A DNA stretch of 63,470 bases, counting the filler, from Squatina squatina (taxonomy: Eukaryota): NCBI GenBank assembly GCA_031763465.1. It is 4 parts of 4 records of this genome, joined end to end, with 100 filler letters (N's around TTAATTAATTAA, not from the genome) between each part and the next. Parts side by side here need not be neighbours in the genome. Positions count along the whole stretch, not along the records: positions 49,785 to 63,470 come from JARFOE010000080.1; 3 more parts are not named here. One strand, written 5' to 3'. The notes under the pieces were generated by a model, which saw only the letters and a list, made by a program, of their open reading frames with translations, made no database searches and was not told the DNA's origin. This document shows, one piece after another, positions 28,688-60,343 of the stretch; the first letter of the stretch is position 1; every line of letters starts with the position of its first letter. The position numbers were made by a program, and so were the translations under genes.

Positions 28688-28787
28688 NNNNNNNNNNNNN
28701 NNNNNNNNNNNNNNNNNNNNNNNNNNNNNNNTTAATTAATTAANNNNNNNNNNNNNNNNNNNNNNNNNNNNNNNNNNNNNNNNNNNN
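28688..28787. other. Artificial scaffold-concatenation linker
   Basis: 44 N + TTAATTAATTAA (28732-28743) + 44 N. Confidence 0.95.
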
Positions 28788-49684: not shown

Positions 49685-49784
49685 NNNNNNNNNNNNNNNN
49701 NNNNNNNNNNNNNNNNNNNNNNNNNNNNTTAATTAATTAANNNNNNNNNNNNNNNNNNNNNNNNNNNNNNNNNNNNNNNNNNNN
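49685..49784. other. Artificial scaffold-concatenation linker
   Basis: 44 N + TTAATTAATTAA (49729-49740) + 44 N. Confidence 0.95.
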
Positions 49785-50450
49785 CCGCATTCGGGGCCGC
49801 ACAGCCGGGGGTGTGCACAGCGAGCCTCAGGGATGCGGCTTTGGTGACTTTGCACCATTCCGGGTCAGTGTAACGTGGCAACGCTAAACCAGTGTTGCTT
49901 TGGCACTGATCCAGCGGTGACCCGGCCAATGCCGCGTCAATGCCAGGTTGCGCCGGCAGCGTGGCATGAGCCGACACTTGAGAGACTGACAAGGATGTGG
50001 GTTCAGAGCAGAATTCCAAACCACTGTCAATCAGGGCCATTTTGACAGCAGGCCCGCCTCCAAACTCACACTCGCAGGGCTGGCAAGATTCCTGCCATAT
50101 AGTGCATTTCATGTCCTCAGGATGCTGCAAAGCACTTCACATCCAATGAACTACTTTTAAGTGCAGTCATCTGTTTTGTAGGCAAACACAAGAGCCAGTG
50201 CTATAAATGAGTATTTAAATAATTCTGGTACTATACAGGAGCAGACAGCATGGCTTTCGAAGTAATAGGTCATGTCCGACAAGCCTATTGTAACTAAGAT
50301 GGTGAATGAGGTAATAATTTCCTGAGGAAACAGCCAGCTTCTTGTTCATATTAATATCCATCAAGTTACAGCATTTCATAGGTTCTGCATTTTGCATTCT
50401 ATCTGCAAGAAATTATTTAAGCCCAATGCTAAAAGGGTCAGTTCACTCAC

Positions 50451-50544
50451 AAAACACGTATGTTGCAAAACTGTCGTCAGCATGCCGTACTTGCATTGCA
50501 CAACTCCAGAAGAAACCCTCATAGTGAAAAGTCTTCATAGATGC
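50451..50544 (-). CDS. TMEM182-like paralog (copy B), exon 2 (94 nt)
   Basis: tttctcctcag|GCA...TTTT|gtgagt. ASMKTFHYEGFFWSCAMQVRHADDSFATYVF matches the TMEM182 motif TFHHEGFFWRC. Phase 0 start joins the 52140-52295 exon in frame. Not in the ORF track. Confidence 0.85.
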
Positions 50545-52139
50545 CTGAGGAGAAACAACTACAACTTCACTTAAGATAATAAAAAATATATATTAAGCAA
50601 TGGAAGTTGAATTTTCTTGAACTACTTTTCCATTCTTAATTTAGTGTAAATATTTTTTCACTTGATTATCTATTGAATTAAAATAAAAAGGTACATAAGG
50701 TTAAAATAAATCTACAATTGAACAGAAAACCTCTGTTAAAAAAGTGAGGGAATGTAATATCTTCTATTTTGGCAACTCAGCATCGTCAAGCATTGCAAAG
50801 GTCAGGTGTGGCACAGGCTGAAAAAAAAAGGATAGCTCCCTCTCGTATGCCCAACAATATGCCTTAAGCACCAACTTTAGATGAAAACTGGAGCAGTGAG
50901 AACAGTTGCGGTTGCCCCAGCAACCTCTCCGAGTTTTATGGCTAATTTGTGCTGTGGACCCATGCCCAATGAGAAGTGGTTTAACACTAAGCAAACTCAT
51001 TTCATATATAATTCTTATCAATCAGCTGAAAAGAGACTCTGAAATAATCCCAGCAGTTTAAGCTAAACNNNNNNNNNNNNNNNNNNNNNNNNNNNNNNNN
51101 NNNNNNNNNNNNNNNNNNNNNNNNNNNNNNNNNNNNNNNNNNNNNNNNNNNNNNNNNNNNNNNNNNNNCAGCAATTTTTGTTTGTATTCTAGATTCCAGC
51201 ATCCGCAGTATTTCGCTTTTGTGTTCCACACTAGGTGGTTGACTCTAATGCCCTCTGAGTAGGATTCTTGTAACATCGTCTACTGCACTTTCATACCAGT
51301 TTTTTGCACTTTCATTTCTACCTCACTTACCCCACCACCACTTCAGTATTCATATATTCGCAATATCTCATCAATGCTTTTTTAAAAATTTCTCTCATTA
51401 TGCCTCCTACAGTCTTGTTAGTATTAATTTGGCCATTTAACCATCTCTTGTTTTCACTGAAGCATTTTATAGGTCATTCTATTTCTTCCTGTGTGCATTT
51501 TTTCCTTCCCTTTGGCTTGCTCATTTGTAATATCTTCCAGTTCTGAAACGTTACCAAACCTATTCCCCCCACAGATGTTCCCTGATTTGCTAAGTGCTTC
51601 CAGGACGTTTCTGTGGGGTTTTTTTTTGCAAGACAATCAATTTGTTTTTCAATTATTAACACTCATGTGGCAGCAAGCGAACACTGTTTAACATTAAAAG
51701 TTTATCGCTTCTTCCAGTTGATTTAATGGGCGGTGGGCAGACCAGGAGATGTGAGGCGACAGCTGAAGAAAATCAGTGACTGGAAGAAGCTGCTTCAGCA
51801 CAAAGTGCTCAGTGACCTGAGAAGGAAGCATTGATAGCAGGGATGGATCATCCGCCACAACTCGAGGCTTGGCTGCGCATCTCGCAGGGAGTGACGCAAT
51901 TGGAAACTTAAACTAGCATTGGGACAACTCTGATTTGTTGAACAGAATCTACAGCTAAACAACTGTAAACGAAGGACTGATTTCCATTTTTTTCTTTTGG
52001 TTTGTTTCTTTGTTGTTTCGACTGAAAATCTGAATCTAGCGATCCTAAATACAAATGTTTAGCTTTTAGCTTTAGGCATTTTTTTTCCGCACAAGTTACG
52101 CGTGTTACAAATCGAACCGAGAAATTGTAACTCACTGAC

Positions 52140-52295
52140 CTGTCCGAAATCCCGCTCTGTGCTATTTTTTGGTTGAGTACAAGTCTGGGTAGCCAGCAGC
52201 CAACAATTGGTGCAGAAAGTCAACAGGGAAAAAGTAACCCCCAGAGTACTAAATAATCTGGCGACAGCTGCAATTTTTGACTTTGAGGTTCTCAT
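52140..52295 (-). CDS. TMEM182-like paralog (copy B), first coding exon (156 nt)
   Basis: ATG at 52295, CAG|gtcagt donor. MRTSKSKIAAVARLFSTLGVTFSLLTFCTNCWLLATQTCTQPKNSTERDFGQ aligns with copy A exon 1 ([16 protein letters not shown]...NRT), same phase 0 intron. Confidence 0.82.
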
Positions 52296-52396
52296 GACTT
52301 TCCGGGGGGGTTGAAGAAAACAAGCGAGAGTCTCCACACAGTCTTTGCTCCCAGTGAAGAGTGACAGTAACTGAATGGATCTTTGCCTAGCCCTGC

Positions 52397-52406
52397 CTAT
52401 TTTTAG
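52397..52406 (-). promoter_or_regulatory. MEF2 consensus site CTAAAAATAG upstream of copy B
   Basis: ctatttttag on the plus strand is a perfect CTA(A/T)4TAG, about 100 nt 5' of the copy B ATG. Confidence 0.5.
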
Positions 52407-52989
52407 ATCAGTAACAGTCTGTAGATTGCTGAGCTACGTGNNNNNNNNNNNNNNNNNNNNNNNNNNNNNNNNNNNNNNNNNNNNNNNNNNNNNNNNNNNN
52501 NNNNNNNNNNNNNNNNNNNNNNNNNNNNNNNNNNNNNNNNTGAAATTACTGAATGCTTTAAACCATTTCAGTTTTTGCATTAAGCTATACTTTAATATTT
52601 ATATTAGGAGAAATCAAGAAAAAATAATTTCTTAGAGTAGCAGCTGTAAATACATTATAAATTTCTAAGCAAAACAATACTGTCTCTTCAAGCATCAGAT
52701 GGGATGAGATAATTATTACAAGTCAAAACCTAATACTGCAAGACTTTAAAATATTTGATTTGAAGTTATTTTCATTTTTCAGCAAAGAACAATTTCATTT
52801 TTAGGGATTCTTCCAAATAGCTAACAAGACAAACCTTTGTTCACTGTATACTATATGAAGAAACTAACCAAAATACTGTTTGAAGATACAGATGCGAGAA
52901 CTTTCATTTCCTATGTGTACATTTGGCAAACTCTGTTTGCATTAAAAGCATTGATTTTAAATTATTTAAAACACTTCAGAAGTTGTCTT

Positions 52990-53216
52990 TTAATCAAAGT
53001 GAATTTGAATGGTGTGGCCTGCAAGGAGGAACAGCAAGCCGGCCAGCAAGGAGAAGAATATCCCAATAGGTGCAACTATGAAAGACCATCCATACTGAAT
53101 GTTTAGTGCAAAATCAGGACAGAGCTGGATTCTTTGCTTCTGAATGTATTCTTGAATATCAATAACAGTTTCGATCCAGATGACATACATAATAACAAGT
53201 ATTGTAAACAAAATAC
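52990..53216 (-). CDS. TMEM182: TMEM182-family gene (copy A), last coding exon
   Basis: cccttcccag|GT ATT. GILFTILVIMYVIWIETV...[46 protein letters not shown] matches human [23 protein letters not shown]...IQIHH. Confidence 0.9.
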
Positions 53217-53784
53217 CTGGGAAGGGGGAAAAAAAGAAAAAATCAATTAAAATAAAATTTTAAAAGATTATTTATGTTCAATTTTTATATTTTTAAACAC
53301 TATTTTTCTCCCTGTTCACTCTGCCTTGTTACCACCCCAGGTGCATTCTCCTCCAGCCGGGAGAGCTGAATTTTAATTAAAGTTAGTTGCTGGTGTTACA
53401 TATTAGCCTAAGTTTAACTATTTTACTCTGGAGAGAAACAATTCATTGAAACAGTTTGAATACAGCATAAAATTGTAGGAAACTGGCAATGTGATGTTAT
53501 TGTTACTATTTTTAATAGAAAGCTCCTCGACCCTGATATTTATGGGGAGGCGGGGAGGGAGCGCGGTTGGGGGGTGGGACCTGGAAATCCCGGGGACAAA
53601 ATTTTAACAACAGGACCTCATTATCATTTCTTAATTCTGTTTCCCGCCCGACAGCCAGCCAGAGACCGGATTGATAGGCTGGCCGGCTGTCGGGCCGGAA
53701 AGCCAGTGGTAGAAGGCCACAGTCATGGACAATTGTGGATGGTCCCCAGGAATCGGGAAAGATTGCAGGTGTCAAAATTTGATG

Positions 53785-56201: not shown

Positions 56202-56339
56202 CGGCAGACAGAAATAGCCCACCTCCTGCTTTGTAGAGCCTATGATTAGAAAATGGAGCTGCACAGATGATGATGAAGCCTCCTACTGTGACAGCAATGA
56301 CACCCAACATCATGAATATAGACCAGAAACCACGGTAAA
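56202..56339 (-). CDS. TMEM182: TMEM182-family gene (copy A), exon 4 (138 nt)
   Basis: tcttcag|TT TAC...GCC G|gtaagt. [45 protein letters not shown] matches human YRGFWAVLMLLGV...IICAAPFASHFLYKAGGG. Confidence 0.92.
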
Positions 56340-59521: not shown

Positions 59522-59642
59522 CCATCGACCTGAAACGTTAACTCTGTTTCTCTCTCCTTAGATGCTGCCTGACCTGCTGAGTATTTCTAGCATTTTCTGT
59601 TTTTATTTCAGATTTCCAGCATCCGCAGTATTTCGCTTTTGT
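59522..59642 (+). mobile_element. 5'-truncated Penelope-like terminal repeat
   Basis: catcgacctgaaacgttaactctgtttc...cagcatccgcagtatttcgcttttgt is nearly the reverse complement of 9630-9746. It lacks the CUGANGA half of the ribozyme. Confidence 0.7.
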
Positions 59643-60193: not shown

Positions 60194-60343
60194 CTCTGCA
60201 GAGATCGAATCCGTTCTATTTCGGACAGAGGGACATGTTTCAGTGGCCAGCAGCCAGTAATCTGTGCCGAAGGCGAGCAGAAAGAGTAGGACTGCGAGAG
60301 CTCCAATCACCCCGGCGAAGAATAGGGCCACGCTGAGTTTCAT
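60194..60343 (-). CDS. TMEM182: TMEM182-family gene (copy A), first coding exon (150 nt)
   Basis: ATG at 60343, GAG|gttagt donor. [37 protein letters not shown] matches human [35 protein letters not shown]. Head-to-head with MFSD9 as in human. Exact orthology (TMEM182 versus TMEM182-like) is unresolved. Confidence 0.9.

Follow-up and report, generated by a model that had tools for sequence, protein, structure and literature searches.

A tandem TMEM182-like paralogue in Squatina squatina and other cartilaginous fishes: exon structure, enlarged loop and candidate roles

Introduction

The TMEM182 gene of Squatina squatina is accompanied by a tandem paralogue, termed copy B here, which is real, old and already auto-annotated, and whose distinctive exon is missed by the gene model of an earlier note on the same DNA. 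The evidence comes from a window of 63,470 nucleotides (assembly GCA_031763465.1), by which we mean the whole stretch of DNA analysed, and from proteins, trees and structural models of related sequences. TMEM182 itself is termed copy A, and a further paralogue of other cartilaginous fishes copy C. We consider it probable that copy B is a working tandem duplicate that serves as an accessory protein of the claudin fold, a judgement that extends to no named partner.

Copy B in the window

Two coding exons of copy B are assembled, both on the minus strand. The first (52140..52295; 156 nt, 52 codons) encodes TM1 and strand beta1, is identical to the sawshark (Pristiophorus) orthologue P0001 at 46 of 52 residues (tblastn E 6e-26), and ends in phase 0 at a GTCAGT donor with its GT at 52139-52138. 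The third coding exon, counted as exon 2 in the earlier note (50451..50544; 94 nt), encodes strands beta2-beta3 with the EGFFW-x-C signature, lies between an AG acceptor at 50546-50545 and a GTGAGT donor, and agrees with P0001 at 26 of 31 residues (tblastn E 9e-14). Neither exon contains a stop, the splice sites of both are intact and identity to the sawshark protein is 84-88%; together they hold W32, C39, EGFFW and C129; alone, the two short exons return no Pfam match. The earlier description of two same-strand exons with GT-AG borders, no stops and two given peptides is borne out, the tblastn matches being far beyond chance, as are two of its further points: exon 1 of copies A and B alike ends in phase 0, and CpG is locally enriched at copy B, where the observed/expected ratio for 51850-52440 is 0.70 (a value reached by 1.7% of 345 overlapping N-free 590-bp segments, whose median is 0.27). 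The adjoining 5' flank or UTR (52296..52396, minus strand) matches the N-terminus of the Heterodontus RefSeq model P0012 (tblastn E 4e-10), which indicates that the flank is conserved. The P0012 model itself appears to translate the counterpart of window positions 52396-52255, that is, the 5' flank plus an out-of-frame exon 1, and its N-terminus looks mis-annotated.

The distinctive part of the gene falls between these exons. About 59-62 residues separate the two blocks in every full-length elasmobranch orthologue aligned, and the direct 52140/50544 splice proposed earlier is not borne out: orthologues carry about 62 residues, or an exon of about 186 nt, in between. Given this omitted loop exon, an RT-PCR product across 52140/50544 would be expected to be about 186 nt longer. 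The exon (orthologue residues 53-114) was absent from the assembled DNA of the window in tblastn, profile HMM and motif searches, and an open-frame scan after every AG of the copy B intron returned three open 62-codon frames, none resembling orthologues. It is likely hidden in the 100-N assembly gap at 51069..51168; a contig of a relative (sequencing run X2), which matches 50287-51068, extends for another 934 letters toward this gap, on a side inferred from strand and record coordinates. Skipping of the exon would preserve the reading frame and a skipped isoform is possible; none of the B models aligned skips the stretch of about 62 residues.

The remaining exons were earlier placed beyond the scaffold end. 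This placement has to be abandoned, as the gene points to lower coordinates and runs into the window, toward position 1, where there are 45,719 assembled bases and 36 gaps. No later copy B exon was found in these bases by tblastn, profile HMM or motif search, and the later exons lie either inside gaps or further on. The window as a whole contains 43 N-runs, with a median piece of about 1.07 kb. Three of its gaps (14412-14511, 28688-28787 and 49685-49784) consist of 44 N, 12 bases and 44 N; the 12 bases at 49729-49740, TTAATTAATTAA, were inserted as a spacer during assembly, contain a stop in every frame and are not genomic sequence, and many other gaps are exactly 100 N, denoting unknown size. 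High-copy repeat fragments, probably SINE/LINE pieces, occur at 51169-51222, 59630-59540 and 49970-50110; contig depth is very high at 51121-51241 and 49911-50152, and the motif at 51169-51222 recurs near 59630. Window positions 1-50450 showed nothing that looked convincingly like a coding exon of a different gene; a few open stretches there reach 130 codons or more, but they look non-coding.

With two of about six coding exons assembled in this genome, lesions elsewhere in copy B can be envisaged, and the absence of later exons from 45.7 kb of assembled downstream DNA might be taken as a sign that copy B has been truncated or is decaying into a pseudogene in this species. Comparison of the 94-nt exon with the X2 contig could be read the same way, the changes being five non-synonymous and one synonymous; the divergence of this exon is 6.4%, vs 7.3% (57/782) for the whole aligned piece, which suggests no clear constraint on exon 50544-50451 in a sample too small to judge. 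However, copy A likewise lacks internal exons in a scaffold of such short pieces, and the two B exons are open, correctly bordered and close to the sawshark protein, so that we regard decay as very improbable.

Tandem arrangement with TMEM182

Three copy A exons are assembled, all on the minus strand: the first coding exon (60194..60343; 96% identical to Heptranchias and 94% to Pristiophorus TMEM182), the exon for TM2-TM3 (56202..56339; 98% identical to P0055, PF13903 E 2.7e-7), and the last coding exon with the stop (52990..53216; 97% identical to P0055 and P0066, PF13903 E 8e-13), the stop codon lying at 52992-52990. With exons 94-98% identical to shark TMEM182, copy A is the orthologue of that gene. 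Its internal exons are absent from the assembled window by tblastn, profile HMM and motif search. Of the FH.EGFFW.C motif described earlier, EGFFW is present in the copy B exon; the copy A counterpart exon is itself absent from the window.

Between the 3' end of copy A and the 5' end of copy B lies a 100-N gap (52441..52540), whose true spacing is likely larger and which is bridged by none of the sequencing records listed. Of four sequencing runs compared with the window, X6 contributed two reads and X7 none, and no gap of the window was spanned by a listed record. An X2 contig that fits 52543-53398 continues for 2,906 letters before that without reaching copy B exon 1, suggesting a spacing of more than 2.9 kb in the relative. 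The unbridged gap, together with the absence of copy A's matching exon, is what could be said for treating the A-B adjacency as a scaffolding artefact, or exon 50544-50451 as a misplaced copy A exon. Such an explanation is hardly credible. The exon is identical to the TMEM182 orthologue P0055 at 12 of 31 residues, against 26 of 31 for the B protein, and so is not a copy A exon out of place; moreover, in all 18 other species testable the two copies sit on one chromosome, equal size of the carrying sequence serving as proxy. Accession order, which is a proxy for adjacency and not a coordinate, places the two genes consecutively or two apart in five of ten species with both accessions (Hemiscyllium, both Chiloscyllium, Hemitrygon and Narcine), within 25 in three and far apart in two. 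Tandem adjacency is therefore supported indirectly by other genomes, and the earlier characterization of copy B as an old tandem duplicate that is probably functional agrees with the intact orthologues in 20 chondrichthyan species, the common chromosome and an NP_ record in Callorhinchus. Linkage of NHE2, MFSD9 and TMEM182 is kept from fish to mammals, according to the portion of the source available (PMC8987715).

Distribution and ancestry of the paralogues

Queried with exon 1, the databases return three entries under the name transmembrane protein 182-like, each 310-313 aa long, in Pristiophorus (88% identical), Cetorhinus (79%) and Narcine (63%); the full sawshark protein returns 18 proteins, of which 16 are elasmobranch B models. 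Cluster look-ups included, B orthologues, all named TMEM182-like, are recovered in 19 elasmobranch species and Callorhinchus (e.g. XP_078401752.1 of Cetorhinus, XP_060682633.1 of Hemiscyllium and the curated-type record NP_001279259.1 of Callorhinchus). These elasmobranch and chimaera models are direct orthologues of copy B, with the same exon borders and the same position beside TMEM182; the same name is also given to copy C, to some species' copy A and to paralogues of bony vertebrates that are unrelated. Copy B had been put forward as the best candidate for something undescribed, a suggestion that fails insofar as the gene is already auto-annotated in RefSeq/UniRef and stands insofar as no description was found in print. 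Likewise, titles and abstract starts, a scope that mostly leaves subscription literature outside, yielded no description of a shark TMEM182 copy; the three-gene cluster, its chondrichthyan restriction in these searches and the conserved loop motif appear undescribed.

Copy C forms a further clade of five, from Heterodontus, Hemiscyllium, Narcine, Hypanus and the Leucoraja cluster (proteins P0079, P0080, P0082/P0166, P0083 and P0107), each on the same chromosome as A; the accession order in Narcine is A 201-202, B 204-206 and C 207. It is fast-evolving, has a long basic loop and occurs in sharks and batoids; no copy C was seen in Callorhinchus among the matches named, and tblastn and profile HMM searches found no copy C exon in the window. 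An exhaustive phmmer search returned 90 proteins, classed by best BLAST score with reference members among the matches and self-matches dropped. Eight of these score best against B or C, all eight being chondrichthyan or in the skate cluster, and no bony-vertebrate B or C is present among the 90 matches. Outside the cartilaginous fishes, these searches brought up neither copy B nor copy C.

A phylogeny with TMEM182 and TMEM182-like proteins, as proposed earlier, places B in a clade with C inside gnathostome TMEM182. Two trees were built. The first, of 76 rows, took matches only if they measured 185-360 aa and added 23 named proteins; the second was a hand-picked subset of 39 rows. In the latter, B+C has support of 100/99, lies inside a gnathostome TMEM182 clade supported at 97/96, and is separate both from the lamprey and hagfish proteins and from another bony clade labelled TMEM182-like, the second bony clade. 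Copy B, with its own clade and a loop of 87-93 residues, is not a one-to-one orthologue of TMEM182. Nor is it an orthologue of bony TMEM182-like genes: joining B+C to the second bony clade gives a p-AU of 0.031, and joining it to the teleost tmem182 duplicates a p-AU of 0.0007. The bony genes so labelled, that is, teleost duplicates such as Nematolebias P0017 and the second clade, which includes Trichomycterus P0085 and tinamou P0018, share family and label with copy B and are not its orthologues. Fast-evolving teleost-type tmem182 duplicates (P0084, P0017, P0102 and P0109, called TMEM182-like where named) are nested in ray-finned TMEM182 and are independent of B/C.

Copy B would have originated by tandem duplication before the chimaera-elasmobranch split. 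The best tree sets A+B+C on one side of a branch, with support of 30/26 only, and a tree constrained to unite chondrichthyan A with bony TMEM182, to the exclusion of B+C, is worse by just 0.14 log-likelihood (p-AU 0.494), as would be expected if the B/C duplication predated the split of cartilaginous and bony fishes and was then lost in bony vertebrates. This earlier date has a substantial chance of being right but is not the one we favour: it needs an extra loss, the best tree unites the three copies, and B and C are absent from bony vertebrates among the 90 matches. Over whole proteins including loop and tail, and leaving out Heterodontus and Rhincodon, divergence of B is 2.0-4.1 times that of A in 14 elasmobranch pairs and 5.3 times in Callorhinchus.

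Predicted architecture and the enlarged loop

Orthologues P0001-P0003 score 88-93 bits against PF13903 (Claudin_2; cut-off 29.1), and at most 20.2 bits against PF00822, the family of classic tight-junction claudins, below its cut-off of 26.7. W32, G124, C129 and C154 are invariant and C255 nearly so in 45 sequences, and C39, which pairs with C255, is nearly invariant in 14; the family signature W...G[FL]FW-x-C...C is thereby present. The AlphaFold model of P0001 (mean pLDDT 67.8) has four helices (2-28, 172-207, 211-248 and 266-301) and five strands (33-39, 118-123, 127-133, 151-156 and 258-264), with pLDDT below 50 for residues 43-115, between beta1 and beta2. Its best structural match is TARP gamma-7 (Z 18.8, rmsd 2.7, 179 aligned), followed by TARP gamma-3, claudin-15 and claudin-19 (Z 17-18); TARPs and claudins are tied as closest folds, with Foldseek as well, and the ESM Atlas returned only TMEM182, TMEM178B and claudin-domain clusters. 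Copy B is thus predicted to be a four-pass claudin-fold membrane protein with a disordered insert between beta1 and beta2. It shares with TMEM182 the PF13903 domain, four TM helices, WLLA-x-x-x-C, EGFFW-x-C, four extracellular cysteines, GWSF before TM4 and a phase-0 first intron, and differs from it, at about 35-42% identity, in a longer loop, an extra C-terminal tail of 20 residues and faster evolution. TARPs, GSG1L and classic claudins have the same fold (Z 17-19) but only 16-20% identity.

From TM1 to EGFFW, the loop spans 87-93 residues in B (Heterodontus B, which has no anchor, being left out of the count) and 82-112 in C, against 30-38 in chondrichthyan A. Conservation within the insert is concentrated in a short motif: all 18 elasmobranch sequences, which share ancestry and do not amount to 18 independent events, have Q91, R93, S94, I95, A96 and E97, whereas only two of 37 columns are invariant at residues 53-89. 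Copy A has about 10 codons at the insert position, skipped by one skate isoform model, and the B loop exon probably grew from a small cassette exon such as this. Dibasic [KR]R-S occurs in 16 of 17 elasmobranch B loops, Pristis being without the dibasic pair, and in none of 19 copy A loops; shuffled inserts contain [KR]R in 11-77% of cases. Basic clusters are found at a similar place in Callorhinchus B and in all four C loops scanned, and again in none of 19 A loops. The B loop was compared with two patterns that we take to mark protease sites, a furin consensus R-x-[KR]-R in an exposed luminal loop and a site-1-protease-type pattern. The furin-type motif is absent from all 17 elasmobranch B loops scanned, none of which has its P4 arginine, and present in Callorhinchus B and skate copy C. 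The missing P4 arginine, the Pristis loop and the ease with which dibasic pairs arise by chance speak against cleavage. Judged from its residues, the loop motif fits a dibasic or site-1-protease-type cut, or else a short binding helix. That a secretory protease cuts the loop within Q-[KR]-R-S-I-A-E or directly beside it, while TM1 stays in the helix bundle, is conceivable though rather unlikely. A separate Thr-rich, repetitive loop of 149 residues occurs at beta1-beta2 in P0088, of the second bony TMEM182-like clade, as an independent expansion.

The C-terminal tail of copy B ends in [DE]-x-hydrophobic in 17 of 18 sequences, an ending that we take to be a class III PDZ pattern; we tentatively suggest, while leaning against it, that it could serve as a PDZ-type anchor. 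A KDEL-type reading of the DEL or EEL end was ruled out, the C-terminus being cytosolic in the claudin fold. No RGD motif is present in the copy B sequences scanned.

Candidate functions

TARPs act as accessory subunits, and loop 1 of TARP and GSG1L is the partner contact. Like TMEM182, copy B probably sits beside another membrane receptor and modulates it, in muscle as the likely tissue; the added outer loop would alter how copy B is regulated. One feature that bears on muscle is a putative MEF2-type site, CTAAAAATAG, at 52397..52406 on the minus strand, roughly 100 bp upstream of the start codon of copy B and identified by what we assume to be an applicable MEF2 consensus. The site was noticed after the fact, and MEF2-type matches are not enriched across the window: they number three against 1.38 expected, a count reached by 16 of 100 shuffles. 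In the part of the source available, chicken TMEM182 is a MEF2A target (PMC11345569). In skate embryonic fin RNA-seq, as far as supplementary file 2 of the report goes, at least three Tmem182 models are listed (PMC10115646), two with log2 fold changes of -5.3 and -4.7 alongside Myod1 (-8.3) and one opposite at +3.5; any of the three may correspond to copy A, B or C. We place expression of copy B in muscle slightly above an even chance.

As to the partner, TMEM182 is a vertebrate protein of muscle and adipose tissue, and the accessible portion of one study reports that chicken TMEM182 binds the integrin beta1 hybrid domain through large-loop residues 52-62, and that TMEM182 dampens laminin binding and myoblast fusion (PMC8718073). 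By platypus numbering, residues 52-62 correspond to the HEGFFWRC stretch, the core of which is kept in window exon 50544-50451. The stretch is also the structural claudin signature, so its retention is no proof of binding, and the copy B version differs from TMEM182 at several places; a partner of integrin-beta1 type is possible, though we think the balance tips the other way.

Copy B may instead have left the muscle and integrin role for another partner or tissue. It might, for example, be the accessory subunit of an epithelial or neural channel or transporter, which it would contact through the long beta1-beta2 loop. Its identity to A of only about 38%, the faster divergence in the 14 elasmobranch pairs, the closeness of the solved TARP folds and the gain of the acidic-x-hydrophobic tail in 17 of 18 sequences all point this way, as does the skate model that opposes Myod1 and moves with Slc9a2-2 in the part of the report available (PMC10115646). 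However, the opposite-going model could be copy C, the TARP and claudin fold matches are tied at 16-20% identity and give no indication of function, and the MEF2-type site lies before the copy B start. We give such a departure a serious chance, somewhat short of even.

Implications

The most specific proposal is a private three-gene TMEM182 cluster of chondrichthyans in which the B/C loop, grown from a loop exon of about 10 codons, would be a long, glycosylated, pro-segment-like element, cut by a protease at the basic site so that SIAE becomes a newly exposed end, making the protein a proteolysis-switched claudin-fold receptor modulator. We hold this full proposal to be improbable. A protease-switched protein of the claudin fold would be unusual, and a limited literature search brought up no relevant precedent. 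Copy B is already annotated and TMEM182 itself little studied, and no long-standing question is opened here. For annotation, no fewer than four distinct genes go under the single database name TMEM182-like. If the reading of copy B as an accessory protein of TMEM182 type holds, cartilaginous fishes, chimaeras included, would have retained throughout their history additional copies of a gene that restrains muscle fusion, with an added regulatory loop, while bony vertebrates do without them, which would provide a case of lineage-restricted neofunctionalisation.
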